Source: Nannocystis bainbridge (GTDB taxonomy: Bacteria > Myxococcota_A > Polyangia > Nannocystales > Nannocystaceae). Taken from it: DNA of 64,000 bases. Of the stretch, positions 5,733-64,000 are shown in pieces. A program made the position numbers and the translations under genes. The stretch lies in contig NZ_JAQNDL010000003.1 of assembly GCF_028368995.1 (NCBI RefSeq), positions 2,496,001-2,560,000 on the forward strand, in the 5' to 3' direction. The notes below the pieces were generated by a model. That model was given only the letters and a program-made list of their open reading frames with translations. It was not told the DNA's origin and did no database searches. Position 1 is the stretch's first letter; each line of letters starts with the position of its first letter.

Positions 5733-8075
5733 TCAGCTGGCCCCGCGGGTCGGCACCGCGCCGAGCGCCGCGAGCACGCGGTCCGGGGTGAGCGGGAGGT
5801 CGCGGACGGCCACGCCGAGCGCGTCATGGACGGCGCAGGCGATCGCGGCCGCGGTCGGGATCGTCGACGGCTCGCCGATGCCGATCGCCCCGGTGTTGTT
5901 GGCGCCGGTGTCGACCGGCGTGAACACCACGTCGATCTCGCGCGGCACGTCGCGCACGCCGGCGATCTTGTAGCTCTCGAGGTTGGGGTTCAGCATCACC
6001 CCGCGCACGCGGTCCATGATCCGCTGCTCGGTCAGCGCGTAGCTGGTGCCGAGGATCACCCCGCCCTGCACCTGCGAGCGGGCCGTCAGCGGGTTCATCA
6101 CCTTGCCGCAGTCGTGGATCGCCAGCACCCGCTCGACCGCGACCACGCCGGTCCAGGTGTCGACGCGGACCTCGGCGAACTGGACCCCGGCGATCTGGTA
6201 GCTGCTGCCGCCCATGAACTTGACCGGGTAGGCGCCGTAGGTGTCGGGCCGCGTGCCGGTGGCGACGACCGCCTCGCCCTCGATCTTCTTGCACAGCTCG
6301 GCCCACGCGATCGCCTTGGTGCCGGCGCGGACCTGGCCTTCGGACCAGGTCAACTCCTCCGGCTTGCGCCCGAGCTGCTTGGCCGCCAGCGCCGTCAGCT
6401 GGGTCTTGACCGCCTCGGCCGCGGCGCGGACCGCCGGGGTCACGCTGGCCGTGGTGACGCTGCCGCCGCTGCCGACCGACGGCCCGAGCTCGCTGTCGCC
6501 GAGGCGCACGCGGACCGCCTCGACCGGGCGCTGCAGCACCTCGGCGACCACCTGCGCGACCACGGTGGTGATGCCGCCGCCGATGTCCTGCAGGCCGTTC
6601 TTGACCTCGACGCTGCCGTCGCGGGCCACGCTGACGGTGGCGACGACCGCCTTGCCGCGGCCGAAGTCGCCCCAGATCGACGCGGCCACGCCGAAGCCGC
6701 GGCGCACCCGGGTCTGCCTGGTGCGCAGCGCCGCCGCCTGCTTGCGCCCGGCGTCCCAGCCGAACTGCTTGCGCCCGAGCTCGAACTGATGCCGCCGCAC
6801 CGGGTGCTCGTCGTGCTGCAGGCGCAGGTCGAGCGGGTCGAGCTTCAGCTTGGCCGCCAGCTCGTCGAGCGCCAGCTCGAGCGCGAACGCCCCCTGCGGG
6901 TGCCCCGGCGCGCGCATGGCCGTGGCCGGCCCGCCGTGGGTGAACACGTCGTGGCTCTCGACCAGGATGTTGGGGCAGCGCGAGTAGATGCCGAACGCGT
7001 TGCGCCCGACCCCCGCGCCGGTGCCGATGCCCGCGGTCCCGTGGGCCTGGACGTGGATCGCCGTCAGCTTGCCGTCGGCGCCGGCCCCGAGCTTGACGCG
7101 CTGGCGCGAGTCGGGGCGGTTGCCGGTGCACAGGTGCTCCTCCTTGCGATCGAGCAGCAGCCGCACCGGCGCGCCGGCCTTGCGCGCGAGCTCGCCGGCG
7201 ATGAAGCCCATGCGCGAGCCCGGGGCCGAGGCGCCGAACTTGGCCCCGAAGCCGCCGCCGAGGAAATCGGTGTGCACGCGCACGTCGGCCGGCTTGAGCT
7301 CGAACACCTCGGCGAACTCGTCGCGCACGCTGAAGATGCCCTGCGTCGAGCACCACACCGTGGCCTGCTTGGGCCCGTCCCACTGCACGACGATGCTGTG
7401 GGTCTCGAGCGCCGAGTGCGTGTGCACCTGCGTGGTGTACGTCGCCTCGTGCGAGACCTTGGCCATGCGCAGGCCCTTGTGCGCGTCGCCCTTCTTCATC
7501 GACGGCGTGGTGCGGACGTTGCCGCGCTGGCCCGCGCTGCCGCCCGCGCCCGGCTCGTCGCCCTCGGTGCTGCGCTCCTGGACCTTGCCGCGGTGGACCT
7601 GCGGCGCGCCGTCCTGCATCGCCGCCGCGGTGTCGACCACGAACGGCTCCGGCTTGTACGTGACAGCGATCGCCCGCAGCGCCGCCTCGGCCTGCTCCGG
7701 CGTCTTCGCGGCCACGGCGGCGACGTCCTGACCGGCGAAGATCACCCGCTCGCCCGGCTTGACCAGAGCCAGCGCCGCGCTCACCCCGGGCTGCGCCCGC
7801 GCCGGCTCGACGTCGATCGCCTCGACCACCGCGCACGGGTGCGGGCTGCGCAGCACCGCCGCCCACAGCGCGTTGGTCGGCACGATGTCGTGGGTGTACT
7901 TGGCCGCGCCCGAGACCTTGAGCGGCGCCTCGACCCGCGGGTGCGGCTTGCCGATCACCTGCAGCTCGCTGCGTGCGTCCCACGGCTTCGGCTCGCCCGC
8001 CGGCAGCTGCACCTCGATGTCGCGCAGCTGGTCGGCGAACCCGACCCTGAGCGTTACCTTGCGATCGTCCGGCAC
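5733..8075 (-). CDS. Xanthine dehydrogenase family molybdopterin-binding subunit (PaoC/YagR-like)
   Basis: KVSGAAKY, GGGFGAK, AMRAPG, QDIGGG, GSGGS, IHDCG.VMNP, GIGEP. GTG start inferred. Confidence 0.93.
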   Translation of the reverse strand: MPDDRKVTLRVGFADQLRDIEVQLPAGEPKPWDARSELQVIGKPHPRVEAPLKVSGAAKYTHDIVPTNALWAAVLRSPHPCAVVEAIDVEPARAQPGVSAALALVKPGERVIFAGQDVAAVAAKTPEQAEAALRAIAVTYKPEPFVVDTAAAMQDGAPQVHRGKVQERSTEGDEPGAGGSAGQRGNVRTTPSMKKGDAHKGLRMAKVSHEATYTTQVHTHSALETHSIVVQWDGPKQATVWCSTQGIFSVRDEFAEVFELKPADVRVHTDFLGGGFGAKFGASAPGSRMGFIAGELARKAGAPVRLLLDRKEEHLCTGNRPDSRQRVKLGAGADGKLTAIHVQAHGTAGIGTGAGVGRNAFGIYSRCPNILVESHDVFTHGGPATAMRAPGHPQGAFALELALDELAAKLKLDPLDLRLQHDEHPVRRHQFELGRKQFGWDAGRKQAAALRTRQTRVRRGFGVAASIWGDFGRGKAVVATVSVARDGSVEVKNGLQDIGGGITTVVAQVVAEVLQRPVEAVRVRLGDSELGPSVGSGGSVTTASVTPAVRAAAEAVKTQLTALAAKQLGRKPEELTWSEGQVRAGTKAIAWAELCKKIEGEAVVATGTRPDTYGAYPVKFMGGSSYQIAGVQFAEVRVDTWTGVVAVERVLAIHDCGKVMNPLTARSQVQGGVILGTSYALTEQRIMDRVRGVMLNPNLESYKIAGVRDVPREIDVVFTPVDTGANNTGAIGIGEPSTIPTAAAIACAVHDALGVAVRDLPLTPDRVLAALGAVPTRGAS

Positions 8076-8077
8076 GG

Positions 8078-8710
8078 CTACGCGCTCCCTTTCGCGGCGT
8101 CGAGCACCGCCGCCACGACGTTGGGGTAGGTCCCGCAGCGGCACAGGTTGCCGGCGATCGCGGCCTCGACGTCCTCGCGCGCCAGCTGCTGCCCGCGCGA
8201 CCGCTCGAGCAGGCCCTGGCACGACATCAACATGCCCGAGGTGCAGAACCCGCACTGCAGCGCGTCATGGCGGATGAACGCCTGCTGCAGCACCGACAGC
8301 TTGCCGCCGCTCGCGAGGCCCTCGACCGTCGCCACGGTCGCGCCGGCGACGTCGTGCGCCAGCGTCATGCAGCTGTTGCGCGCGACCCCGTCGATCAGCA
8401 CGGTGCAGGCCCCGCAGGCCCCGCGGTCGCACACCACCTTGGTGCCGGTGAACCGCAGCTGCTCGCGCAGCGCCGCCAGCAAGGTGACGTGCGGCGCGAC
8501 CTCGAGGGTGCGCGCCTCGCCGTTGAGCGTGAAGCTGACCGGCGCGGGCCCCGGCCCGAACGCGGCCTCGCCGTGCCCCGGCCCGGCGGCGTCGCCGTGC
8601 TCCTCGGTGGTGGTGGGCGGCCGCTCGCCCGGCTTGCAGCCGGCGATCAGTCCCGCGGTGCCGATGCCGCGGAAGAGGCCGCGACGGGTAATGCCAGCCC
8701 GATCGGACAT
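8078..8710 (-). CDS. (2Fe-2S) subunit with Tat signal (PaoA/YagT-like)
   Basis: TRRGLF Tat motif followed by IAGC (possible lipobox), GTKVVCDRGACGACTV, LQCGFCTSG, GNLCRCGTY. Confidence 0.93.
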   Translation of the reverse strand: MSDRAGITRRGLFRGIGTAGLIAGCKPGERPPTTTEEHGDAAGPGHGEAAFGPGPAPVSFTLNGEARTLEVAPHVTLLAALREQLRFTGTKVVCDRGACGACTVLIDGVARNSCMTLAHDVAGATVATVEGLASGGKLSVLQQAFIRHDALQCGFCTSGMLMSCQGLLERSRGQQLAREDVEAAIAGNLCRCGTYPNVVAAVLDAAKGSA

Positions 8711-8760
8711 CAGGCCCACGGTACCACGCCGCCCGGGCCGCGTATACTCCCGCCTGCTGC

Positions 8761-9408
8761 ATGCAGAACGACCCCTCGCTGCAACCTCTGAAGCCGCTGC
8801 TCGATGCCCTGGCGTTCACCACCGAGTTCGGCCGTGAGCTCGGCGAGCTGGCGCCGACCGAGGCGCTGCGGGCCGGCCTGTCTCTCGGGACATCCACGCC
8901 GCTGCCGCCGGCCGACGACCGCGTCCGCGCCGCCGTGCGTGACCTGCTGCGCAAGGCCGGCTTCAAGCCGACCGGGCGCTCCAAACCAGCCTCGGAGTAC
9001 CTGCTCAAGGCGGCCGGCGACGGCTCGCTCGGCAGCATCAACGCCGCGGTCGACGCCTGCAACGTCGCCTCGCTCCACAGCGGCCTGCCGATCAGCGTCG
9101 TCGACCTCGACCGCGCGACCGCCCCGCTGGCGCTCGGCGTGCCGGCGCCGGGCACCAGCTACGTGTTCAACGCCAGCGGCCAGGTCATCGACATCGGCGG
9201 CCTGGTGTCGCTGCTCGACGCCGAGGGCCCGTGCGCCGGCCCGGTCAAGGACTCGCAGCGGACCAAGACCCACCCCGGCACCCGCCGCACCCTCTCGATC
9301 GTGTGGGGCACCACCCAGCTGCCCGGCCTCGCCGCCGCCACCGCCGCGTTCTACCGCGAGCTGCTGCACGGCCTCGGCGCGACCACCGAGACGGTCACGT
9401 TCGAGTAG
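8761..9408 (+). CDS. B3/B4 (PheT editing-like) domain protein
   Basis: GFKPTGRSKPASEYL, INAAVDACNVASL.SGLPISVVDLD. Confidence 0.85.
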   Translation: MQNDPSLQPLKPLLDALAFTTEFGRELGELAPTEALRAGLSLGTSTPLPPADDRVRAAVRDLLRKAGFKPTGRSKPASEYLLKAAGDGSLGSINAAVDACNVASLHSGLPISVVDLDRATAPLALGVPAPGTSYVFNASGQVIDIGGLVSLLDAEGPCAGPVKDSQRTKTHPGTRRTLSIVWGTTQLPGLAAATAAFYRELLHGLGATTETVTFE

Positions 9409-26959: not shown

Positions 26960-29900
26960 TCAGTTGGGCAGCGTCGGCGCCTTCTCGGGCGCGGCTGCCG
27001 GGGCCGCGGCCACCGGCGCCGGCTTGTCGCCGGCGGCCTGATCGCCAGCGGCCCTGGCGGCGAGCACGTCGGGGTGGATCTCGAGCTCGGCGAGCCCACC
27101 CGGGATCAGCAGGTCGGCGACCGGGGTGGCCTCGGCGATCACGCTGCCGTCGCGGCGCTTCAGCACGACCGGCGGGTGGGCCTTCTCGTGGGTCGCGAGC
27201 TGCTTGCCGAGCGCGGCCTGCTTCTCCTCGTCGAGCGCGGTCCAGGCCAGGCGGCCGCGGCACTTGGGGAACTTCGAGCAGCCGAGCCACGGGCCGCGCT
27301 TGCCCATGCGCAGGTTGAGCGGCGCGCCGCACTTCGGGCACGGCACGTCGACCTCGAGCGCCGGGGGCGTCGGCAGCTTGACGCCCTCTTTCTTGTCGAG
27401 GTTGATGACGAACTTCGTGTGGGGGAAGTTGACCGACGCGAGGAACGGGCCGAAGCGGCTGTTGCGGAGCTCCATGTCGGAGCCGTCGTCGGGGCAGACC
27501 ATGTCGACGCGCTCGGGCAGCAGCGGCCGGCCGTCGCGGGTGATCGGTGCCGCGTAGTCGCACTCGGGGTAGCGCGTGCACGACAGGAAGCGGCCGTTCT
27601 TGCCGAACCGGTAGCAGGTCGGCGCCCCGCACTTCGGGCACTTGTAGATCGCCGGCTGGGCCTCGGCCTTGGCGTGCGTCATCGTGTCGCTGGCGATGTC
27701 GAGCGAGCGGCGGAACCCGCCGTAGAACCGCTCGAGCATCTTCTGCCAGTCGGCGCCCTTGTCCTCGATCTCGTCGAGCTGGGCCTCCATCGCCCGCGTG
27801 TAGCCGACGTCCATCAGGTCCTTGAACGCCTCGACCAGCTTGTCGGTCACGACCTCGCCGAGGTCGGTGGCGTAGAAGCGGCGGTCGAGCTGCTCGACGT
27901 ACTTGCGCTCCTGGATGACCGAGATGATCGACGCGTAGGTCGACGGCCGGCCGATGCCCTCGGCCTCGAGCGTCTTGACCAGCGACGCCTCGGTGTAGCG
28001 CGGCGGCGGGCTCTGGAACTTCTGCTGCGGCTCGATCGAGAACGTCCCGAACGCCTGGCCCTCGCCCAGCGTCGGCAGCGTCTGCTCGTCGGTCGCCTGC
28101 ACCCCGAGCACCTTGAGGAAGCCGTCGAACGCCAGCGTGCGGCCGGTCGCCCGCACCACCGCGCCGGTCGGCTTGTCGGCGCGCTCGAACATCACCGCGG
28201 TCGCGTCCCACTGCGCCGGCGTCATCTGGCACGCCACCGTGCGGGCCCAGATCAGCGAGTACAGCTTGAACTGCTCGTCGGTCAGCGCCTCGCGCACGTC
28301 CTCGGGGCGGCGGTTGATGTCGGTCGGCCGGATCGCCTCGTGGGCCTCCTGCGCGTCCTTGTTCGACGACGTGTAGATGTTGGGCTTCTCGGGCAGGTAA
28401 GGCTCGCCGAAGCGCGCGCCGATGAAGCCGCGGATCTGCGTCAGCGCCTCGGCCGACAGCGAGACCGCGTCGGTGCGCATGTACGTGATGAGGCCGACCT
28501 GGCCCTCGCCCGGGATGTTGATGCCCTCGTACAGCTGCTGGGCCGTCCGCATGCTCCGCTGGGTCGTGAAGCCCATCTGGTTGGCGGCCGCGATCTGCAG
28601 CGACGAGGTGATGAACGGCGCCAGCGGGCGCGAGCTGGTCCGCTTGGTCTCGACCGACTTGACGCGGTAGCGCACCGCCGGGTCGACCACGCCGCTGACC
28701 GTGCGCAGCGTCCTCTGCGGGCCCTTGCCCTCCGGGTTGTCGCGCGCCGTGATCTTGACGTCGGCGAGGCCGACGGCCTCGACCGCGCGGGCGACGTCGG
28801 CGGACAGGTCGCGCGGGGCGGTGGAGACCGCCGTGAGCGCGAACTTCTCGCCGCCGAGCTCGACCAGCTCCGACTCGATCGCCGCGTGCTGCGACATCCA
28901 AGTGTTCTGCGCCTTGACGGTCGGGCCCTTGCCCTTCTCGTCGACGGTGGCGAGGTAGGTGGCCCACGCGGCGGTCAGCGGCTGGGCCTGGGCCGGGTCG
29001 ACGCACAGGCGGACGGTGACCTCCCAGCGCTCGTCGGGCACGAAGGCCGCGATCTCGCGCTCGCGCTCGACGATCAGCTTGACCGCGACCGACTGCACGC
29101 GCCCGGCGGACAGCCCGCGCGCGACCTTCTTCCACAGCAGCGGCGACGCCTGGTAGCCGACGATGCGGTCGAGGATGCGGCGCGCCTGCTGGGCGTTGAC
29201 CTTGTTGACGTCGATCGGCCGCGGGTTGGCGAACGCGCGGTGCACGGCCTGCTGCGTGATCGCGTTGAACACCACGCGACGGGCCGCCTGCGGCGGGATC
29301 TTGAGCTCCTCCGCGAGGTGCCAGGCGATCGCCTCCCCCTCGCGGTCAAGGTCCGTCGCGAACCACACTTGCGACGCGTTCTTCGCCAGCCGCTTGAGGT
29401 CGGCGACCGTCTTGCTCTTATTGGTCAGGACCACGTAGGTCGGGCGGAAGCCGTGCTCGAGATCGACCCCGGGCACCGGCTGCTTGGCGCCCTTCTCCGA
29501 TTTGGTCGGCAGGTCGCGGATGTGGCCGACCGACGCCTGCACCACGAAGTTCGGGCCGAGGTACTTGTTGATCGTCTTGGCCTTCGCGGGGCTCTCGACG
29601 ATGACCAGCTGCTTGCCGCGCGCCGACGCGCCTTCGCTGCCGGCCTCGTCCTCGTCGCCCTCCTCGGGCGCCTCCGCGGGCTCGGCCTTGGCCTTGGGTG
29701 CCTTGGCCGCCTTGGGTGCCTTGGCCGCCTTGGGCGTCGCGGCCTTGGCGGCCTTCTTCGCCGGGGCCTTCTTCGCGGCCGCCTTCTTCGCCGCGCCGCC
29801 CTCGGCGGGCTCGGCGGCCTTCTTCGCGGCCTTCTTGGCGGCCTCCTTGGGGGCGCCTTCCTCGGCGTCCTCCGCGGCCTTCTTCGCGGCTTTGGGCTTC

Positions 29901-58853: not shown

Positions 58854-59906
58854 ATGAGTTCAAAATGCCTCGCCCTAACTCACGCCTTAATCGCCGTCCA
58901 GCTCGCCGCCTGTGGTGAGCCCGTGACCCAGGGCGACACGGGCAACATGAGCGACGGCTCGTCGACCACCGACGGCAACCTGACCGCGACGACCGTCCCG
59001 ACCACCGGCCCGACCGGCAGCGGCAGCGAGACCGGCACGAGTGACAGCGAGGGCAGCGGCAGCAACAGCGACACGCAGGCCACCACCTCGACCAGCACCA
59101 CCGACCCGCTCACCGGCACGAGCGCGACCGACAGCACGGCGACCACCACGCCCGGCACGACCACGCTCGACACCACCACGCTCGACACCACGACGACCAC
59201 CGACTCGACGACGTCGACCGCGAGCACCACCGGCGAGACCGCGACCGACACCACCGACGGCACCACGAGCACCACCGATGGCGGCACCACGGGCGACCCG
59301 GTCGGCTGTGGTGATTCGCTGACCGCGGTCATCCGCGACTTCAAGCTCGCGCACCCCGACATGGAGGATTACTGCTGCGGCCAGGTCGACGGCCTCGTCC
59401 AGCCTACCCTCGGCCCCGACAAGAAGCCCGCGTTCAAATCGGTCGGCAACCCCAAGATGCTCACCGACGCGCCGACCTTCGCGCAGTGGTACAACGACGT
59501 CGCCGACGTCAATCATAAGACCCAGATCTCCCTGAACCTGGTCGAGATTCAGCCCGGTCTCTACTCGTACACCAACAACGATTTCTTCCCGGTCGACAAT
59601 ATGTTGTGGGGCAACGAGGGCCAGAACCACAACTTCCACTTCACGACCGAGATCCACACCAAGTTCCAGTACGCCGGCGGCGAGACCTTCACCTTCCAGG
59701 GCGACGACGACGTGTGGGTCTTCATCGACGGTGACCTCGTCATCGACCTGGGCGGCGTCCACGGCGTCGCCAGCGGCACCGTCGACCTCGACGACCTCGG
59801 CCTCCAGCTCGGCGACATCTACAACCTCGACGTCTTCCACGCCGAGCGCCACACCGTGCAGTCGAACTTCCGCATCGACACCACGATCTGCGCCGTCCCG
59901 ATGTGA
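58854..59906 (+). CDS. Fibro-slime (PA14-like) domain lipoprotein
   Basis: LAAC lipobox, Thr-rich linker, IRDF...[38 protein letters not shown]...SNF. Confidence 0.92.
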
Positions 59907-60212
59907 CCGGCCGCTGAATCCGCCCGCGACCTCGCCCTCGATGACCGAGCGCGAGGTCGCGTCGCGACTGCGACCGACCCTCGCGCGGATCAGCGCCGCC
60001 TCTCGAGCACGAGTTGAACTCGAATGAGAGCGATATCGAGGCGCGCGGGGCTGCCCGCCCCTTGCCATCGCCCGCCGAGGGACCATCTTCGCACATGCGT
60101 GGTCCTCGTTCGCGAGTCCGCGGCCCCGGCGTCCGGGCCCAGCGATACGGCTCGATACATTCCGATTCATTAGGATAGGAAATCGCCCCAGCTTCTCCCC
60201 GAGGTTCGCAGG

Positions 60213-60270
60213 CAACCTGTTGAAATCATGCATGTTGGCCACCCGATTGACGGCTGGCCTGTTGCGTGCT
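60213..60270 (+). promoter_or_regulatory. Candidate sigma54 promoter with IHF-like site upstream of the tRNA array
   Basis: TGGCCTGTTGCGTGCT at 60255-60270 (GG-N10-GC). The reverse complement of 60213-60225 is TTTCAACAGGTTG, one mismatch from WATCAANNNNTTR. AT-rich context. Confidence 0.5.
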
Positions 60271-60665
60271 CAAGTGGGGTCAAGGACCTGCGTCATGGCA
60301 CCGATCGCCGTCACCACGAAAGATACGCACCAGCCCGTCGCCAGAGATGCGATGGGTAAGCGTATTCAAACGTGGCGACGTGGTCGCGGGTGCTGAAGCA
60401 GAGCACTGCAACCGTCCGCGACCACGAAGTCGGCGAGCGTCCAACTGGCGGCAAAACGAAGCGCCGCCAGACGCTCAGTTCGCGGCGCGTCGATCGTTCG
60501 TCTCCTCCGCGAGCTTCTTCCAGGTCGCCCTCGCTTCCGGGTTCGGAAGACCGGGGCCACACCTCGGGCCTGCGTCGAAAGACGCTGGCATCGGCCAACT
60601 CGGCCGGATTCGCGTCGTCGACGCGCGTTCTTTTACAACTGAATCGTGGAAGAGGAAGAGAAGAT

Positions 60666-60734
60666 TGCGTCGTCGGGCGGCCCCGACCCTCGGCTCTGAC
60701 CCGAGGCTTGCTGGATCGACACCAGCCGGCGCAA
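60666..60734 (+). tRNA. tRNA-Gln(CTG), divergent
   Basis: Acceptor tgcgtcg/cggcgca; anticodon arm ctcgg-ctCTGac-ccgag; T arm gctgg-atcgaca-ccagc. Confidence 0.65.
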
Positions 60735-60776
60735 TTTCAGTCGCAGGCCCGACCTATCGTCGGCCTGCGCAATCGA

Positions 60777-60847
60777 GGTGCCGTGGCCGAGTGACAGGCA
60801 GCGCTCTCATAAGGCGCCATACGCAGGTTCGTTACCTGCCGGCACCA
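60777..60847 (+). tRNA. tRNA with CAT anticodon (Met or Ile2)
   Basis: ggtgccg/cggcacc; gcgct-ctCATaa-ggcgc; gcagg-ttcgtta-cctgc. Confidence 0.8.
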
Positions 60848-60863
60848 TCCTCGATGACAAATT

Positions 60864-60936
60864 GGGCTGCGAGCGAAGGCGCTGGCGAACCCTTGCAAGG
60901 TTCGTGTTACATCGGGGGCGGTACCCGAGCGGTCCA
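60864..60936 (+). tRNA. tRNA-Ala(TGC), divergent
   Basis: gggctgc/gcggtcc keeps G3:U70 and A73; gaacc-ctTGCaa-ggttc; tcggg-ggcggta-cccga. Confidence 0.7.
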
Positions 60937-61020
60937 TACGCGGCGTAACGGCGCCTGTTACGTCACAGCGAGCGTTCTGCACACACACGGCGGTCGGAGC
61001 CGTGCTCGCACCGACAACCT

Positions 61021-61108
61021 GGAAGCGTCGTCCAATGGTAGGACAGCAGACCGTTAATCTGCCTGGGCAATCGCCCACTCGATGCAAGTTCGATCCTTGC
61101 CGCTTCCG
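61021..61108 (+). tRNA. tRNA-Asn(GTT) with long variable arm
   Basis: ggaagcg/cgcttcc, G73; gcaga-ccGTTaa-tctgc; variable arm tgggc-aatc-gccca; gcaag-ttcgatc-cttgc. Confidence 0.8.
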
Positions 61109-61113
61109 CTCCT

Positions 61114-61186
61114 GGGCCGATGGGACAGATGGATGTTCAGCGGGTTCTTACCCCGCCTCAGGCTGGATCGTTACCAGCTCGGCTCG
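61114..61186 (+). tRNA. tRNA-Lys(CTT), divergent
   Basis: gggccga/tcggctc; gcggg-ttCTTac-cccgc; gctgg-atcgtta-ccagc. Confidence 0.7.
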
Positions 61187-61220
61187 TATCTCTTATTTAT
61201 TCTATAATCATTAGCAAACT

Positions 61221-61308
61221 GGGCTCCGGCCAGGACGGGAATGGGGCGGACTTTTAATCCGCATGCCGGGCGCTTGCGCTCGACCGAGTTCGACTCTCGG
61301 GGAGCTCT
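61221..61308 (+). tRNA. tRNA-Lys(TTT) with long variable arm
   Basis: gggctcc/ggagctc; gcgga-ctTTTaa-tccgc; variable arm cgggcg-cttg-cgctcg; ccgag-ttcgact-ctcgg. Confidence 0.78.
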
Positions 61309-61355
61309 TATATCTTCAATAACACTCTCGTTCGCGGCTCGAATGGGCCGCTCTT

Positions 61356-61429
61356 GCCGCCGTAGGGGAGTTGGAGTCTCCGCCTCGTTGTCAGCGAGGA
61401 GATCGCGGGTTCGAGTCCCGCCGGTGGCG
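61356..61429 (+). tRNA. tRNA-Asp(GTC) copy 1
   Basis: gccgccg/cggtggc, G73; cctcg-ttGTCag-cgagg; gcggg-ttcgagt-cccgc. Confidence 0.9.
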
Positions 61430-61471
61430 TTGTTCATTGATATCGATATCTCGGCCCGTACGGGCCGATTT

Positions 61472-61545
61472 GCCGCCGTAGGGGAGTTGGAGTCCTCGCC
61501 TCGTTGTCAGCGAGGAGATCGCGGGTTCGAGTCCCGCCGGTGGCG
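61472..61545 (+). tRNA. tRNA-Asp(GTC) copy 2
   Basis: Near-identical to copy 1. Confidence 0.9.
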
Positions 61546-61577
61546 TCGATCCATCTCTGCCAGCAGGGCCATTCTTT

Positions 61578-61651
61578 GCCGTCGTAGGGGAGCTGGAGTC
61601 CCCGCCTCGTTGTCAGCGAGGAGATCGCGGGTTCGAACCCCGCCGGTGGCG
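61578..61651 (+). tRNA. tRNA-Asp(GTC) copy 3
   Basis: A few substitutions relative to copies 1 and 2; same anticodon arm. Confidence 0.88.
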
Positions 61652-61658
61652 CTCGAGC

Positions 61659-61727
61659 AGGGGCGCGCGTGGTGTGCTACGCGAGGCTTTGAACCTCGTA
61701 AGGAGAGTTCGAACCTCTCCGCCCCTT
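61659..61727 (+). tRNA. tRNA-Gln(TTG), short D arm
   Basis: aggggcg/cgcccct; cgagg-ctTTGaa-cctcg; gagag-ttcgaac-ctctc. Confidence 0.75.
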
Positions 61728-61800
61728 ACCCCTCGGATTTATCTTCGACTCTGATGAATCTTCCACCCGACGTGATTCGTATCTGAATCATCGAACATTC

Positions 61801-61871
61801 GCCGATGTGGCCTAGTGACTGGGCGTCACCCTTCCAAGGTGAAGACGCGGGTTTGATTCCTGCCATCGGCT
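61801..61871 (+). tRNA. tRNA-Gly(TCC)
   Basis: gccgatg/catcggc, U73; tcacc-ctTCCaa-ggtga; gcggg-tttgatt-cctgc. Confidence 0.85.
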
Positions 61872-61885
61872 CTCTGTGAACCTCT

Positions 61886-61957
61886 GCAGTTCAGGTCTTG
61901 TCAGTGAGACGCGTGGTTGCCTACCACGAGGGCCCGGTGCGACCCCGGGGAGCTGCT
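61886..61957 (+). tRNA. tRNA-Gly(GCC), divergent
   Basis: gcagttc/gagctgc, U73; cgtgg-ttGCCta-ccacg; cccgg-tgcgacc-ccggg. Confidence 0.72.
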
Positions 61958-61969
61958 CTACCGTGAATA

Positions 61970-62037
61970 GCCCTTGCTCCAAGGGGGCGCGCTGCTTGGT
62001 ATGTAGCGATGTCCGGGAGCGTTACCCGGCGAGGGCT
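61970..62037 (+). tRNA. tRNA-Thr(GGT), divergent with minimal D arm
   Basis: gcccttg/cgagggc; gctgc-ttGGTat-gtagc; ccggg-agcgtta-cccgg. Confidence 0.65.
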
Positions 62038-62047
62038 TTTGAATCTT

Positions 62048-62120
62048 GCCCCCCAAGCATCAATGGTGATGCGCCGCCCTCGTAGCGCGGAATCGCCGGG
62101 TTCGATCCCCGGGAGGGGCT
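62048..62120 (+). tRNA. tRNA-Thr(CGT)
   Basis: D arm gcat-caatggtg-atgc; ctCGTag loop; ccggg-ttcgatc-cccgg. Confidence 0.82.
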
Positions 62121-62135
62121 ACCTTTTGAAAGGCC

Positions 62136-62207
62136 GGTCCACGAGCTCCCCGGTCGAGCGCCTGCCTGACATGCAGGAGGTACGAGGTTCGATTCCTCGA
62201 TGGACCA
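62136..62207 (+). tRNA. tRNA-Val(GAC)
   Basis: ggtcca/tggacc, A73; cctgc-ctGACat-gcagg; cgagg-ttcgatt-cctcg. Confidence 0.82.
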
Positions 62208-62230
62208 CTCGTTTCCAGTCTGGACAATCT

Positions 62231-62302
62231 GCTCTCGTCGTCTAATAGATAGGGCCCAGGTCTACGGAGCCTGCGATGGTGGTGCGATTCCACCCGAGAG
62301 TA
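62231..62302 (+). tRNA. tRNA-Arg(ACG)
   Basis: gctctcg/cgagagt; caggt-ctACGga-gcctg; ggtgg-tgcgatt-ccacc. Confidence 0.8.
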
Positions 62303-62322
62303 CTCATTTTGATAAAGACAAT

Positions 62323-62394
62323 GGCCTCGAAGTGTATGAGATTGCACGCGACCGTCCGAAGGTCGTGGACCGGGTGCGACTCCCGGCGGGGCTG
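62323..62394 (+). tRNA. tRNA-Arg(CCG)
   Basis: ggcctcg/cggggct; cgacc-gtCCGaa-ggtcg; ccggg-tgcgact-cccgg. Confidence 0.75.
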
Positions 62395-62415
62395 CCGGGC
62401 CTGCTTGCGGGTCAC

Positions 62416-62488
62416 GCTCGCGTAGCTCAGCTGGACGAGCATTGGTCTTCTATACCATCGGACGCAGGTTCGAACCCTGCCGCGAGTA
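62416..62488 (+). tRNA. tRNA-Arg(TCT)
   Basis: gctcgcg/cgcgagt; canonical tagctcagctggacgagc D arm; tggt-ctTCTat-acca; gcagg-ttcgaac-cctgc. Confidence 0.88.
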
Positions 62489-62514
62489 TCTTCGTTCGTT
62501 TGAATCGTTCATCC

Positions 62515-62586
62515 AGGGGAGAGGTGTTGATGGTGACATGCGGGACTCCAACTCCTGCGAACCGGGTTCGAGTCCCGGCTCCCCTG
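62515..62586 (+). tRNA. tRNA-Trp(CCA)
   Basis: aggggag/ctcccct, G73; cggga-ctCCAac-tcctg; ccggg-ttcgagt-cccgg. Confidence 0.88.
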
Positions 62587-62616
62587 TCTTGCATGGGCCC
62601 GGTGCTTCCGGGCCGT

Positions 62617-62682
62617 GGAGCCCGTTCTGGTGGAACGTCGCGGCGCTGCCGCGGTCGTCGGTTCGAGTCCGGCGGGGCTTCT
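62617..62682 (+). tRNA. tRNA-like element, nominal anticodon GCT, aberrant anticodon arm
   Basis: ggagccc/gggcttc; D arm gttc-tggtg-gaac; cgcggc-GCT-gccgcg nearly closed loop; gtcgg-ttcgagt-ccggc; no variable arm. Confidence 0.45.
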
Positions 62683-62683
62683 T

Positions 62684-62754
62684 TGGGCTAAAGCTCGTGA
62701 GAAGAGCGGTGCTCTGTGACAGCACAGGAGAGGGGGCGGAACCCTCTAGCCCAC
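62684..62754 (+). tRNA. tRNA-His(GTG) without an encoded G-1
   Basis: tgggcta/tagccca, C73; gtgct-ctGTGac-agcac; gaggg-ggcggaa-ccctc. Confidence 0.75.
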
Positions 62755-62776
62755 CCGCGCGCCAACCGGCGCGCAC

Positions 62777-62848
62777 GCCCGCGTAGCTCAACGGAAGAGC
62801 GGCGTTCTCACACATCGCAGGTCGGGGGCTCGACACCCTCCGCGGGCA
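62777..62848 (+). tRNA. tRNA-Val(CAC)
   Basis: gcccgcg/cgcgggc, A73; canonical D arm; ctCACac loop; ggggg-ctcgaca-ccctc. Confidence 0.8.
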
Positions 62849-62870
62849 ACGAACGTCTTCGTAACAACCT

Positions 62871-62941
62871 GGCCCTGTAGTTCAACGGCAGAACCCCGCG
62901 CTCTCTACGCGGAAACCGGAGATCGTCACTCCGCAGGGTCA
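62871..62941 (+). tRNA. tRNA-Glu(CTC), divergent
   Basis: ggccctg/cagggtc; ccgcg-ctCTCta-cgcgg; cggag-atcgtca-ctccg. Confidence 0.75.
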
Positions 62942-62947
62942 TTCGTA

Positions 62948-63020
62948 CGAGGTGAAGGCTTGATGGTAAGCCGCATGCTCGGGGAGCATGAGATTGTGCG
63001 TTCGACTCGCACCACCTCGA
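62948..63020 (+). tRNA. tRNA-Pro(GGG)
   Basis: cgaggtg/cacctcg with C1:G72 and A73; catgc-tcGGGga-gcatg; gtgcg-ttcgact-cgcac. Confidence 0.82.
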
Positions 63021-63042
63021 TTGTTTTTATTTCAACAATCAT

Positions 63043-63116
63043 CGGAGACGGATCGCGGAGTGCGAGGCGTGTTTCGGGAACACGTAGGCGGGGTGCGACG
63101 CCCCGGTCTCCGACCA
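63043..63116 (+). tRNA. tRNA-Pro(CGG) with encoded CCA
   Basis: cggagac/gtctccg followed by ACCA; cgtgt-ttCGGga-acacg; cgggg-tgcgacg-ccccg. Confidence 0.78.
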
Positions 63117-63162
63117 ACCCCTGCCCCGGGCCGCGGCCAAGCGCTGCGGCCCGGGCTCTCTC

Positions 63163-63233
63163 CCGCGTCCGTGGACGGTGCCACACCTCGTCTGATAAGC
63201 GAGCCCTTCGGAGTTCAACTCTCCGGGCGCGGA
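63163..63233 (+). tRNA. tRNA-Ile(GAT)
   Basis: ccgcgtc/ggcgcgg, A73; ctcgt-ctGATaa-gcgag; cggag-ttcaact-ctccg. Confidence 0.78.
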
Positions 63234-63277
63234 TTTCGATTCTCTTCCTCATCCACGATCCGCGTCGTGCCCCGGGC

Positions 63278-63904
63278 TCATGGCCCGGGGCGCGGCGCCA
63301 GGTAGCCGCCGACGAGGGCGATGAGCTCCTCGACGAGGCGGGGGTCGGACAGCCGCTCGGGCTGCTCGAGCACGCACGTGAGGATCACCCACTCGATCGC
63401 GCTGACGATCACGAACGCGGCCAGCTCCGGGTCGACCGGCCGCAGCTCGGCGCTGCGGGCGATCAACGCGTCGCGCAGGCGCTCGCGGCCCGCGTGCACG
63501 TGGGCCCGCAACGCCTCGACGCGACCGACCCGCGGCACGTGCAGCAGCACCGCGCGGAAGAACTCCAGATCGCCGCGGTAGAGGTCGATCGCGGCGCGCA
63601 GGCCGTCGCGCATCTGCTCGGCGAAGGAGCCGCCGTCGGGCGCCGGGACCTCGAACACGCGCTCGATGCCGCGGGTGAACTTGCGGTCGAGCGCCGCCGC
63701 GAGCATCGCCTCCTTGCTCGGGAAGTACTGGTAGAGCGAACCGACGCTGACCCCGGCGACCCGCGCGATCTCGTTGGTCGTCGTCGCCTCGAGGCCGCGC
63801 TCGCCGAGCACGCGGACGGCGGCGTCGAGCAGCGTATCGACCATCTGCTGGCTCCGCGCCTGGCGCGGCTGCTTGCGCGGGGTATGGCGAATCGGCGAAG
63901 TCAT
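63278..63904 (-). CDS. TetR/AcrR family transcriptional regulator
   Basis: PRKQPRQARS, TTNEIARVAGVSVGSLYQYFPSKE HTH. Confidence 0.93.
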   Translation of the reverse strand: MTSPIRHTPRKQPRQARSQQMVDTLLDAAVRVLGERGLEATTTNEIARVAGVSVGSLYQYFPSKEAMLAAALDRKFTRGIERVFEVPAPDGGSFAEQMRDGLRAAIDLYRGDLEFFRAVLLHVPRVGRVEALRAHVHAGRERLRDALIARSAELRPVDPELAAFVIVSAIEWVILTCVLEQPERLSDPRLVEELIALVGGYLAPRPGP

Positions 63905-64000
63905 CGGATCGCCCCTCGCACCGGGAGCACGGTCATTCGCCCTGCTCCGCGCTCTCGCGCGTCGGCGTCGGCGTCGGCTCGGCGGCGACGGCGGCGGGGG

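Follow-up and report, generated by a model that had tools for sequence, protein, structure and literature searches.

The tRNA gene arrays called L-arrays are reported (Tran et al. 2015, PMC4758250; Santamaria-Gomez et al. 2021, PMC8421152) to have a patchy distribution and to spread horizontally, frequently carried by mobile elements or plasmids. The array of the Anabaena PCC 7120 trn operon is described as silent until translation is impaired (PMC4758250, PMC8421152), and control of this operon is ascribed to direct repeats that cover the -10 box and are presumably bound by a repressor. Neither paper mentions myxobacteria, deltaproteobacteria or Nannocystis in its main text, and Nannocystis does not figure in the portion of the PMC8421152 supplement that was searched. 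The locus described here lies in a 64-kb stretch of Nannocystis bainbridge DNA, the whole of which was analysed (the window). It resembles the L-arrays, as characterised in these reports, in carrying at least 20 tRNA genes on one strand, non-periodically and at well over 2 per kb. Its genes are likewise supernumerary, divergent and apart from the housekeeping set, adding isodecoders without new anticodons. Unlike the L-arrays so described, it occupies a fixed chromosomal place in six species of one genus and, in contrast to their patchiness, is under strong purifying selection. It also differs from the Anabaena operon, as reported, in that its conserved control region consists of a predicted translated leader and a terminator-like hairpin.

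Dense one-strand arrays of G+C-rich hosts are also found as the tRNA clusters of Mycobacterium and Streptomyces phages. The present locus differs from these: four phage records were matched, one tRNA each, and phage genes are absent nearby. Leader-peptide transcription attenuators control the amino-acid operons trp, his, leu, thr, ilv and pheA, and also pheST. In rRNA operons, sequences flanking the precursor form RNase III processing stalks.

Gene content of the array

Between 60665 and 63233, ARAGORN at default settings identified 23 tRNA genes, every one of them on the + strand; it called no further gene in the rest of the 64-kb window. With -ps90, a His gtg gene and a weak Thr-ggt-like gene bring the total to 25. 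Together with one tRNA-like element, assigned to Ala in the original prediction, they account for the approximately 26 cloverleafs announced there.

60665-60735, +: tRNA-Gln ctg (ARAGORN), T-loop GATCGAC; below RF00005 cut-off; 94-100% identity in 5 relatives
60777-60847, +: CAT-anticodon tRNA (ARAGORN; RF00005 50.7 bits), G1:C72
60862-61014, +: 150-nt tRNA-like element ("Ala"), from conservation and folds
61021-61109, +: tRNA-Asn gtt (ARAGORN; RF00005 54 bits), long variable arm, 89 nt; the long arm is missing from G010
61113-61187, +: tRNA-Lys ctt (ARAGORN)
61221-61308, +: tRNA-Lys ttt (ARAGORN), long variable arm, 88 nt; gives a weak tRNA-Sec-like match (27.8 bits)
61355-61430, 61471-61547 and 61578-61652, +: three tRNA-Asp gtc (ARAGORN; RF00005 51.6-52.8 bits); relatives have 1-2 copies
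61659-61727, +: tRNA-Gln ttg (ARAGORN; RF00005 31.6 bits)
61801-61872, +: tRNA-Gly tcc (ARAGORN, RF00005)
61886-61958, +: tRNA-Gly gcc (ARAGORN, RF00005)
61969-62038, +: weak Thr-ggt-like tRNA (ARAGORN -ps90 only), previously noted as a GCT-like element; 91-93% identity in 4 relatives
62048-62120, +: tRNA-Thr cgt (ARAGORN)
62136-62208, +: tRNA-Val gac (ARAGORN)
62231-62303, +: tRNA-Arg acg (ARAGORN, RF00005)
62323-62396, +: tRNA-Arg ccg (ARAGORN, RF00005)
62416-62488, +: tRNA-Arg tct (ARAGORN, RF00005)
62514-62588, +: tRNA-Trp cca (ARAGORN, RF00005)
62595-62681, +: tRNA-Thr ggt (ARAGORN), long variable arm, 87 nt; no orthologue in 5 relatives
62684-62756, +: tRNA-His gtg (ARAGORN -ps90), T-loop GGGCGGA; 96-99% identity in 3 relatives
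62777-62848, +: tRNA-Val cac (ARAGORN); its place is taken by Val tac in 3 relatives and by a gene with a TGC anticodon in G010
62870-62942, +: tRNA-Glu ctc (ARAGORN)
62948-63020, +: tRNA-Pro ggg (ARAGORN)
63043-63116, +: tRNA-Pro cgg (ARAGORN), CCA encoded
63163-63233, +: tRNA-Ile gat (ARAGORN), final array gene

The array covers 14 amino acids and 22 anticodons, including the C34 isoacceptors ctg, ctt, cgt, ccg, cac, ctc and cgg. The CAT-anticodon tRNA is not initiator-like because it begins with G1:C72. Genes for Leu, Ser, Tyr, Phe and Cys are lacking from the array under both ARAGORN settings, as predicted. The RF00005 gathering score was reached by 12 genes when the whole window was scanned, by 13 in a 4-kb scan and by 15 of the 25 in a search of the genome itself, which leaves 10 below the cut-off. 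Array genes score 30-61 bits and housekeeping genes mostly 55-76. Pfam analysis of 10 flanking ORFs identified no integrase, phage or transposase gene beside the array in N. bainbridge, in agreement with the original prediction, and no adjoining biosynthetic genes were found.

Unusual tRNA features

According to the ARAGORN folds, the GTTCRA T-loop is present in 13 of the 25 genes and T at position 8 in 12, so that the anticipated loss of these signatures concerns about half of the array. Two tRNAs carry C33 in the same folds. Long variable arms, unexpected with class-I anticodons, occur in three (Asn, Lys ttt and Thr ggt), and a GUGCGA T-loop occurs in four genes, three of which have a D-loop without GG. 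The anticodon loops of most isoacceptors also differ from the housekeeping loops when compared by eye. Some array tRNAs may fail in translation, given the RF00005 failures, the non-canonical U8 and T-loops and C33.

Most of the identity elements proposed from the sequence were recovered in the ARAGORN folds: G73 in Asp, Asn and Trp, U73 in Gly, C1:G72 with A73 in Pro and C73 in His. The Ala G3:U70 pair was not reproduced. CCA is indeed encoded by a single gene, Pro cgg; this is no peculiarity of the array, because most housekeeping genes of the genome also lack it. The "Ala" element, situated in the Met-Asn gap, is not called by ARAGORN (default or -ps90) or RF00005. Its conservation across 5 genomes is 95% or more, and G003 has the first half too. 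It can be folded with paired ends, a GAACC-CUUGCAA-GGUUC hairpin (60887-60903) with an Ala-type anticodon-like UGC and a T-arm-like hairpin.

Conservation

The original prediction placed the locus in a myxobacterium, which is correct, and its bearers among the relatives are all Nannocystis. Gene order is common to 5 of the 10 other genomes of the genus that were searched, each a different species, while the array was found in none of 30 genomes of other genera. The downstream side is syntenic in 4 of the 5 relatives. In G001 the array is split by a transposase insertion, so this genome can do without an intact operon.

Identity to the window is 0.96-0.985 at paired positions, 0.86-0.92 at unpaired tRNA positions and 0.52-0.69 in spacers, substitutions in stems thus being far rarer than in spacers. 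This marks the array members as constrained genes rather than pseudogenes. Distinct pair states comprise 36 keeps of the G-U type, 8 double compensatory changes, 4 other double changes and 16 breaks, 7 of which are misalignments in the long Thr gene specific to the window; the six compared genomes are related to one another, and a single lineage (G003) accounts for most of the compensatory changes. Identity to housekeeping genes of the same anticodon (0.20-0.76) is no higher than between unrelated tRNAs. The array genes are therefore divergent, as predicted, and not recent copies of housekeeping genes. Each array anticodon has a canonical, higher-scoring gene elsewhere in the genome. The best outside matches of the two Val genes are tRNA-Val of Mycobacterium and Streptomyces phages, with 76-82% identity over 65-86 nt. 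No plasmid match to the array was found, and the single 24-nt word tried against viral contigs gave none.

Leader region and bracketing repeat

A conserved leader of 400 nt precedes the array. Between 60254 and 60663, identity in 4 relatives is 85-97%, above that of the array's own spacers. The features of this region, together with the two arms of the bracketing inverted repeat, are as follows.

60143-60192, +: A+T-richer conserved stretch with repeated CGATAC/GATA words (6-genome alignment, by eye)
60254-60269, +: candidate sigma-54-type promoter TGGCCTG-N4-GTGCT, GG and GC invariant in 6/6 genomes
60282-60286, +: Shine-Dalgarno-like AAGGA, 8 nt 5' of the leader ATG, invariant in 6/6 genomes
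60295-60396, +: leader ORF of 33 codons plus TGA, MAPIAVTTKDTHQPVARDAMGKRIQTWRRGRGC, open in 6/6 genomes
60379-60634, +: structured leader RNA of 8 helices, including a hairpin around the leader stop codon (covariation)
60611-60634, +: terminator-like hairpin CGCGTC-loop-GACGCG, followed by CGTTCTTTT
60643-60662, +: inverted repeat, 5' arm, purine-rich, 20 nt, 95% complementary
63240-63259, +: inverted repeat, 3' arm, complementary to 60643-60662

The promoter assignment, by resemblance to the sigma-54 consensus, is of low confidence; the CGATAC/GATA stretch upstream of it is a possible regulator site. A sigma-70 scan of 59800-63500 revealed no promoter-like site.

The leader ORF is written largely in the codons of the array. 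Array tRNAs can read 28 of its 33 codons, which use 18 of the 22 array anticodons; 13 of the 14 amino acids appear, one to few times each and with no single-codon run, and Leu, Ser, Phe and Tyr codons are absent. The joint P of this match is 6e-4, 4e-4 or 2e-3 under three nulls, values computed post hoc, once the pattern had been noticed. Twelve of the 33 codons end in A or T, against a GC3 of at least 0.9 in genes of the genome. The leader RNA comprises 55 pairs, with 96.4% of cells paired (alignment A3), and 8 of these pairs show changes on both sides, against 2.2 +/- 1.2 after shuffling (0/500) and 0-1 when slid. The terminator-like hairpin lies 215 nt 3' of the leader stop and 30 nt 5' of the first tRNA. 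Its T-run is short, and in G003 a U-A pair is replaced by C-G.

As in attenuators, a short ORF of regulatory codons stands just 5' of the presumed controlled genes, and its stop codon falls in or beside conserved hairpins with alternative pairings. Unlike attenuators, the genes concerned are tRNAs rather than biosynthetic enzymes or a synthetase, the leader samples 13 of 14 amino acids instead of repeating one codon, and the terminators have no long U-runs. No mutually exclusive antiterminator was identified.

The inverted repeat (19-23 bp) flanks the whole array on both sides. It is kept in 6/6 genomes, with a compensatory change of both sides in G003. The predicted duplex of about 20 bp recalls the stalks of rRNA operons in flanking a long multi-gene precursor, unlike them enclosing 25 tRNAs rather than ribosomal RNA. 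To our knowledge, a bracket of this kind has not been described for any tRNA array.

Satellite clusters

The amino acids missing from the array are not all missing from the spare set: Leu, Tyr, Ser and Cys genes occur in small conserved clusters of their own at other places in the genome. Of four satellite clusters examined, those for Leu/Tyr/Pro, Ser and Glu/Asn are preceded by leaders enriched in the amino acids that the cluster itself carries, and each of these three leaders is retained in 6/6 genomes. The Leu/Tyr/Pro leader contains 13 cognate codons out of 24 (P 8e-7, rank 1 of 47 tRNA loci) and the Glu/Asn leader 8 out of 30 (P 1e-5, rank 2 of 47), while the Cys leader is not enriched in this genome (1/23 codons). 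In a leader-by-cluster matrix, enrichment is seen in 4 of 5 diagonal cells, and the off-diagonal P never falls below 0.2. Neither terminator-like nor sigma-70 promoter-like sites were found for the Leu and Ser leaders.

In distant relatives, too, what a leader encodes changes with the tRNAs of its cluster. G002 and G009 possess a Pro/Arg/Leu cluster whose leader is rich in Leu, Pro and Arg and has no Tyr. In G002, the leader MFRFTDHTTTTTTTTVVRGIIVAFMGVDMRPR precedes a Thr-Val-Ile-Met-His-Phe cluster and resembles multivalent attenuator leaders.

Alternative explanations

We regard it as probable that the array is a vertically inherited, L-array-type set of spare tRNAs gated by leader-peptide attenuation. 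That it is instead the ordinary constitutive tRNA complement, behind a conserved 5' leader whose ORF and hairpins sense nothing, is unlikely. Conservation and stem constraint would suit any expressed tRNA operon, the C34 isoacceptors suit a G+C-rich genome and no antiterminator was identified. However, this explanation must contend with the higher-scoring canonical genes for all array anticodons, with the deviation of the array genes from near-universal tRNA features and with the codon content of the leader. Nor does a passive leader account for the way in which leader amino acids track cluster content, in three further clusters here and two in distant relatives. There is a small chance that the locus is a phage or mobile-element relic for defence or counter-defence, its tRNAs replacing host tRNAs cut by anticodon nucleases or other tRNase toxins or serving as decoys for them, under a protein regulator rather than the leader peptide. 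Such arrays are reported to spread horizontally (PMC8421152, PMC4758250) and those of mycobacteria have been termed a putative anti-defence system (PMC12803027). The divergent anticodon loops and the phage tRNA-Val matches agree with this, and the candidate sigma-54-like motif and upstream repeats, both seen by eye, could serve an activator. Set against it are flanks free of integrase, phage and transposase genes in this genome, the downstream synteny and the negative plasmid and viral-word searches. A relic could also use leader gating as its sensor, so that it competes with the spare-set reading mainly on the trigger.

It is improbable that many of the RNAs act off the ribosome, for instance by supplying aminoacyl groups to enzymes of secondary metabolism or the cell wall, or by acting as tRNA-like regulators. 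Natural-product pathways are abundant in myxobacteria, and the unusual elbows (GUGCGA T-loops with D-loops devoid of GG), the long variable arms and the 150-nt element would fit such roles. Yet 14 amino acids with paired isoacceptors resemble a decoding set, discriminator bases agree with the expected identities, biosynthetic genes do not adjoin the array and RNAs used off the ribosome would have no need of a leader that ribosomes read in the same codons. Decay of pseudogenes in a neutral intergenic region is scarcely credible. The genes below the RF00005 cut-off, the missing canonical loops and the single encoded CCA might suggest it, but tRNA bodies are 92-96% identical between species when spacers are not, stem changes mostly preserve pairing, below-cut-off genes are as conserved as the others (Pro cgg 97-100%, and Gln ctg similarly) and tRNA genes of this genome generally lack an encoded CCA. 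Cross-species conservation and stem constraint contradict this reading.

Conclusions

That the array is inducible, as originally proposed, is indirectly supported by the conserved leader ORF, the structured leader RNA, the terminator-like hairpin and the cognate leaders of the sister clusters. The decoy role raised as an alternative found no support; a leader written in the codons of the array argues for use in translation. If the spare set is leader-gated, the array would most likely be co-transcribed as one unit, starting at a promoter some 400 nt 5' of it. RNA polymerase would pass through the translated 33-codon leader, the folded leader RNA and the terminator-like hairpin before reaching the array, and the primary transcript would close through the 19-23 bp stem formed by sequences flanking the first and last tRNA. 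A ribosome stalled in the leader for want of any array tRNA would allow transcription to continue into the array, and the tRNAs made would presumably be aminoacylated. Leader-peptide attenuation would here act on tRNA genes, and no published description of such a leader-gated tRNA array was found in the literature searched. The conserved operon and its leader thus suggest, from sequence, a switch that may produce spare tRNAs when ribosomes stall. If this reading is true, the array and the satellite loci together would constitute a modular, feedback-controlled spare tRNA set.

Gene content and structure of the array

Run with default settings on the whole 64-kb window, ARAGORN identifies 23 tRNA genes between positions 60665 and 63233, all on the + strand. 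A lower threshold (-ps90) raises the number to 25 by adding two genes of the same orientation, His gtg (62684-62756) and a weak Thr-ggt-like gene (61969-62038), the latter being the element first described as GCT-like. The density is about 9-10 genes per kb (23-25 genes in 2569 bp). All 25 genes adopt a cloverleaf fold in ARAGORN. Their RF00005 scores range from 30 to 61 bits, against 55-76 bits for most other tRNA genes of the genome, and the gathering score is reached by 12 genes in a scan of the whole window, 13 in a 4-kb scan and 15 in a search of the own genome, which leaves 10 of the 25 below it. As the original prediction stated, many members deviate from the usual tRNA signatures: in the ARAGORN folds the GTTCRA T-loop is found in 13 of the 25 genes and a T at position 8 in 12. 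Four genes exhibit a GUGCGA T-loop, and three of these have a D-loop without GG. Only the three Asp genes form a near-repeat; the array is otherwise non-periodic. CCA is encoded by Pro cgg only, as had been reported, although the weight given to this feature was misplaced since most housekeeping genes of the genome lack CCA as well. Apart from this point and from a G3:U70 pair assigned to an Ala gene, ARAGORN and RF00005 bear out the earlier description almost item by item. Aminoacylation and ribosomal use of these tRNAs are putative; the features read that bear on them are the discriminator bases and the acceptor pairs.

Long variable arms with conserved stems are found on Asn gtt, Lys ttt and one Thr ggt (61021-61109, 61221-61308 and 62595-62681, respectively). 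It was considered whether the three might be mischarging Ser-type bodies; the Asn arm is missing from the N. exedens orthologue and therefore behaves as an inserted hairpin. The orthologous slot at 62777-62848, in which the gene is 91-96% identical, varies in its anticodon: two genomes have CAC, three have TAC and N. exedens has TGC (Ala), so that a single base switches the anticodon of a Val-type body.

The Ala gene of the original prediction was placed in the 173-nt gap between the CAT tRNA and tRNA-Asn, which is at least 95% conserved in five genomes. A conserved element with a UGC hairpin does lie there, but no tool calls a tRNA and the G3:U70 pair was not reproduced. The element folds with paired ends, an anticodon-like hairpin (GAACC-CUUGCAA-GGUUC), a T-arm-like hairpin adjoining the 3' strand and an insert of about 75 nt. 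In energy this fold does not stand out from shuffled sequence (z = -0.75), and it is the conservation of the element that makes it a candidate. No Rfam family matches it, or the leader upstream of the first tRNA, at E values up to 10 (60000-64000).

Relation to housekeeping tRNAs and genomic environment

For every array anticodon the rest of the genome contains a further gene with RF00005 support, so that the array provides supernumerary isodecoders and no new anticodons. Array tRNAs show an identity of 0.20-0.76 with the gene of the same anticodon elsewhere in the genome, and their best match is often a tRNA for another amino acid (0.68-0.79), indicating that they are not recent duplicates. 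Other unusual tRNA matches are found in this genome (G000). At G000:C1:3854350-3854813 (minus strand) three adjacent RF00005 matches, of 157 and 148 nt (44 and 30 bits) plus a partial one, have no ARAGORN call and may be tRNA-like genes with insertions. Partial matches at G000:C4:25813-25881 and 29479-29543 (model positions 3-68 and 5-66; 32.7 and 50 bits) lack acceptor ends.

Among 10 ORFs around the array, Pfam profiles detect peptidase M28, PhoX, DUF4785, PA14 and a TetR regulator; they detect no integrase, phage or transposase gene in this genome, in agreement with the first description. Downstream, genes for a cupin, an MBL-fold hydrolase and an alpha/beta hydrolase are syntenic in four of the five relatives that carry the array, and those for a catalase and a histidine kinase in three, while the upstream genes and the TetR gene are not. 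Only in this genome does the TetR-family gene (63278-63904, minus strand) separate the array from the conserved downstream genes, and tblastn found no counterpart at the orthologous loci of the five relatives. The syntenic MBL-fold gene was considered as an RNase Z and rejected, its best NCBIfam match being a generic metal-dependent hydrolase (40.7 bits for a cut-off of 144). In N. punicea the array is split between Gln ttg and Gly tcc by a 1.6-kb insert (7250-8863 of the extracted locus L013) encoding a 368-aa DDE_3 plus HTH transposase (ORF 7419-8525).

Four records of a phage collection each match one tRNA-Val (76-82% over 65-86 nt), and a plasmid collection yielded no match to the array. 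The 24-nt word taken from Pro cgg has no match in viral contigs, and neither this word nor a 25-nt leader word has one in metagenomes. Four runs labelled metatranscriptomic, RNA-Seq or RIP-Seq, all flagged as probably DNA, yielded only short contigs from relatives (90-99% identity). Those of 63 and 84 nt, from soil runs with the metatranscriptomic label, extend over the Arg-acg (62230-62292) and Pro-cgg (63042-63116) bodies and no further. Such tRNA-body contigs are indistinguishable from mixed-strain DNA, and neither expression nor silence of the array follows from them.

Conservation across Nannocystis

The genome comprises 11.05 Mb in 5 contigs (71-72% G+C). The 24-nt Pro-cgg word is also present in N. 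exedens DSM 71, N. punicea FL3, N. sp. RBIL2, N. pusilla Na p29 and N. radixulma. When 41 genomes (the window's own, 10 others of the genus, 14 of the family and 16 of the class) were searched at the DNA level, the array was recovered in the same five relatives, at 75-88% identity, and only single-tRNA-sized matches in the other 35. The five same-genus genomes without it are 64-88% complete and consist of 40-1440 contigs. Since it was not found in the 30 genomes of other genera, the array may be an old acquisition by the ancestor of the genus.

The orthologous loci carry 22-25 ARAGORN genes each on the + strand, in the same order in all five relatives, and 23 of the 25 genes have orthologues at 74% identity or more (mostly above 90%) in at least three of them. 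Equal substitution frequencies in stems and spacers would have counted against the original prediction, and this is clearly not what is seen: aligned over the whole array, the relatives share with the window 0.96-0.985 of the paired and 0.86-0.92 of the unpaired tRNA positions and 0.97-1.0 of the anticodons, against 0.52-0.69 of the spacers. Of the distinct pair states that have changed, 36 retain pairing through G-U and 8 are double compensatory; another 4 are double changes of other kinds. Breaks number 16, 7 of which fall in the long Thr gene that is found in the window only and, having no orthologue, is misaligned. Genes under the Rfam cut-off are conserved like the rest (Gln ctg 94-100%, Pro cgg 97-100%, Ile 90-97%). 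We conclude that the array is real, conserved and under selection as a set of folded RNAs.

A tRNA array unit has been defined by a minimum of 20 tRNA genes and of 2 genes per kb (PMC4758250), and the 23-25 genes at about 9-10 per kb fall within this definition. The array also agrees with the description of L-arrays in PMC8421152, being long, non-periodic, supernumerary and of one orientation, hence a potential operon. It is thus an L-array-type member in Myxococcota. However, L-arrays are described as patchily distributed, horizontally spread and often carried by mobile elements (PMC4758250, PMC8421152), whereas this one is kept in order in six Nannocystis species, with downstream synteny in four of five relatives and no flanking mobile genes. 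The main texts of both papers do not mention myxobacteria, deltaproteobacteria or Nannocystis; among the rows listed in the supplement of PMC8421152, Myxococcus, Sorangium and Haliangium appear without long arrays and Nannocystis has no entry. The N. exedens genome announcement, in the part consulted, counts 107 tRNAs and says nothing further about them.

Control region of the main array

The region of about 400 nt preceding the first tRNA (60254-60663) is 85-97% identical in four relatives and 60-80% in N. radixulma, well above the array spacers. It includes a short ORF, hereafter the leader.

Features of the control region (window coordinates)
8 nt before the ATG, + strand: Shine-Dalgarno-like AAGGA, invariant
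60295-60396, + strand: leader ORF of 33 codons, open in all six genomes
60611-60625, + strand: terminator-like hairpin followed by CGTTCTTTT, called by the terminator scan; the T-run is short

The Shine-Dalgarno site and the conservation suggest that the leader is translated. An ORF on the minus strand (60311-60598) was discarded as not consistently open across relatives. The genome contains no second copy of the leader DNA or peptide. No sigma-70 promoter satisfied the scan rule before the main array or before the Leu and Ser clusters described below; by eye, the sequence TGGCCTG-N4-GTGCT at 60254-60269, with GG and GC invariant in six genomes, resembles a sigma-54 promoter, which we regard as a lead rather than a result.

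The codons of the leader match the content of the array. With standard wobble, array tRNAs can read 28 of its 33 codons (30 if the UGC element is counted), and 18 of the 22 distinct array anticodons are used. Both Lys, Gln, Thr, Pro and Gly codon types are present, matching the paired isoacceptors, and Leu, Ser, Phe and Tyr, the amino acids absent from the array, have no codon. Codons ending in A or T number 12 of 33, compared with a GC3 of at least 0.9 in the genes of the genome. At least 28 readable codons together with at least 18 anticodons have a joint probability of 6e-4 against 33-codon windows of long high-GC3 ORFs, 4e-4 against 4590 short ORFs of contig C2 and 2e-3 against shuffles of the leader itself, values that overstate the surprise because they were computed after the pattern had been noticed. 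The leaders of the five relatives, which are kin, have 27-31 readable codons and use 17-19 anticodons.

The six-genome alignment supports a leader RNA with 8 helices and 55 pairs, 96.4% of the cells at these positions being paired. Eight pairs are changed on both sides (2.2 +/- 1.2 in shuffles, 0 of 500 reaching this value, and 0-1 with slid partners), one of them, U-A to C-G, in the terminator stem. The terminator-like hairpin sits 215 nt past the leader stop.

A repeat brackets the array. The 20 nt that immediately precede tRNA-Gln (60643-60662) show 95% complementarity to 63240-63259, which starts 6 nt past tRNA-Ile. The repeat occurs in all six genomes, as a perfect 19-mer in three, and in N. 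radixulma GTGGAA/TTCCAC is replaced by GTCGAA/TTCGGC with pairing kept. We read it as a putative long-range RNA stem closing a 2.6-kb precursor, comparable to the RNase III processing stalks of rRNA operons, and as an argument for co-transcription of the whole array. Transposon inverted repeats are a less likely explanation because there is no transposase and the locus is fixed. Of the five clusters of this genome that were examined, the other four lack such a bracket.

Sister clusters and their leaders

The genome contains further tRNA clusters with A+T-rich spacers, and a second Phe gene.

Sister clusters and lone gene (contig:positions)
C2:2356727-2357509: Pro tgg, Leu gag, Leu caa, Tyr gta, Leu cag, Leu cag, Leu gag
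C1:3057230-3057513: three Cys genes
C3:526095-526398: Ser gct, Ser gga, Ser cga
C1:1430433-1430676: Glu ctc, Glu ttc, Asn gtt
C2:2623605: second Phe gene, lone and lower-scoring

The Leu/Tyr/Pro, Cys and Ser clusters occupy separate loci in all five relatives. The 400 nt upstream of all 47 tRNA loci were scanned for short ORFs enriched in codons read by the locus itself (cognate codons). The Leu/Tyr/Pro leader MAGLLLLPELLDPRPYLRLLPYLPR ranks first of the 47 (13 of 24 codons cognate, P 8e-7) and the Glu/Asn leader MSRLNPNTSNPARFRVLGNEERELERILRGG second (8 of 30, P 1e-5). The third rank is held by a housekeeping Glu/Lys pair whose ORF looks like the Lys-rich tail of a real protein; the Ser leader MLPRRTDRTRSPRSVSGFGRSSSSSR is seventh, the main array ninth and Cys tenth. 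When each leader is compared with each cluster, the sister leaders have 13/24 (Leu/Tyr/Pro), 7/25 and 8/30 (Glu/Asn) cognate codons, and four of the five diagonal cells are enriched (P 4e-3, 2e-6, 6e-3 and 9e-6). The Cys diagonal cell is not significant, and no off-diagonal P in this matrix is below 0.2. The Leu/Tyr/Pro, Ser and Glu/Asn leaders are each kept in all six genomes. The Cys leader is weaker: in this genome a single Cys codon stands close to its stop, and two relatives have CCC runs. Between this leader and the three Cys genes lies a 10-nt tandem repeat, GCGCGTGCCT x6 (minus strand, about 955-1020 of L024, the locus extracted upstream of the Cys cluster); any frame through it yields two Cys codons per 30 nt, and it is not aligned in the five relatives.

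Two more distant genomes of the genus carry a homologous cluster composed of Pro tgg, Arg acg, Pro cgg, Pro ggg, Leu gag and Leu cag, whose leader is rich in Leu, Pro and Arg and has no Tyr (MNTASNIHGSTLQLQPRAGLLLPVRPLRLRLLPLPTR). One of the two (G002) also has a Thr-Val-Ile-Met-His-Phe cluster behind MFRFTDHTTTTTTTTVVRGIIVAFMGVDMRPR. The composition of the leader thus changes with the content of the cluster. The two G002 clusters face each other at 1065-2554 of the extracted locus L051, Pro-Arg-Pro-Pro-Leu-Leu on the + strand and Thr-Val-Ile-Met-His-Phe on the minus strand; each stands behind its own cognate leader, so that the spare set is partitioned differently in small-genome relatives.

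Proposed mechanism

We infer that the array is transcribed and its tRNAs processed and charged. The simplest reading of the leaders is leader-peptide attenuation: a ribosome would stall on the leader for want of cognate charged tRNA, the stalled ribosome would alter downstream RNA folding, and RNA polymerase would then read on into the tRNA genes. The main array shares with known leader-peptide attenuators an upstream short ORF enriched in codons of the regulated product. In the main, Leu and Ser leaders the stop codon falls within a small conserved hairpin (GUGCU-GAAGCAG-AGCAC, CCCCGG-UAA-ACGGGG and CACGC-UA-GCGUG, respectively), and the 3' arm of the Ser hairpin (GCGUG) can instead pair downstream as an 11-bp hairpin, both of which are consistent with attenuation. 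Segment 60379-60389 of the main leader can also pair either upstream or downstream. No complete terminator/antiterminator switch could be derived from the alternative pairings of the leader, and the scan called no terminator in either the Leu or the Ser leader; a variant that depends on Rho or on processing is just as possible. Taken in full mechanistic detail, attenuation seems to us somewhat probable.

A wider and more tentative reading, which we hold to be possible but rather doubtful, is a modular tRNA homeostat: a second, structurally deviant tRNA set split into operons, each placed behind a test gene written in the codons of its own tRNAs. Loss or damage of tRNAs, for example by tRNase toxins of soil bacteria or borne by phages, would stall ribosomes on the matching leader and so switch on replacement tRNAs, which, with their altered loops and elbows, might be spared by that attack. 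To this the main array would add pan-amino-acid sensing and a processing stalk like that of rRNA.

Outside Firmicutes, long tRNA arrays are for the most part regarded as cryptic cargo acquired by horizontal transfer and, to our knowledge, the operon of Anabaena, whose basal expression is low and which is induced by translational stress, is the only one with a known trigger. The control described for this trn operon involves direct repeats over the -10 box, and the words "leader", "attenuat" and "terminator" are absent from the main text of the paper. In the literature covered, from which subscription journals are mostly missing, no description of leader peptides controlling tRNA genes was found. 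Likewise, we found no description of control regions that resemble cognate leader-peptide sensors and recur in several clusters and species, or of a stem bracketing a whole array.

The array is kept by descent across the genus under clear selection, although half of its genes break near-universal rules for tRNAs, those on U8, the T-loop and the G18G19 elbow. Being conserved yet rule-breaking, these genes constitute a natural test bed for the features that a bacterial tRNA can dispense with. The own-codon leaders of the array and its sisters offer a concrete mechanism, in which stalled ribosomes would register the supply of tRNA and so control tRNA transcription by feedback, and as several Nannocystis strains are cultured the prediction is open to experiment. 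The homeostat, if true, would give leader peptides a new role and would be a control logic new to tRNA genes.
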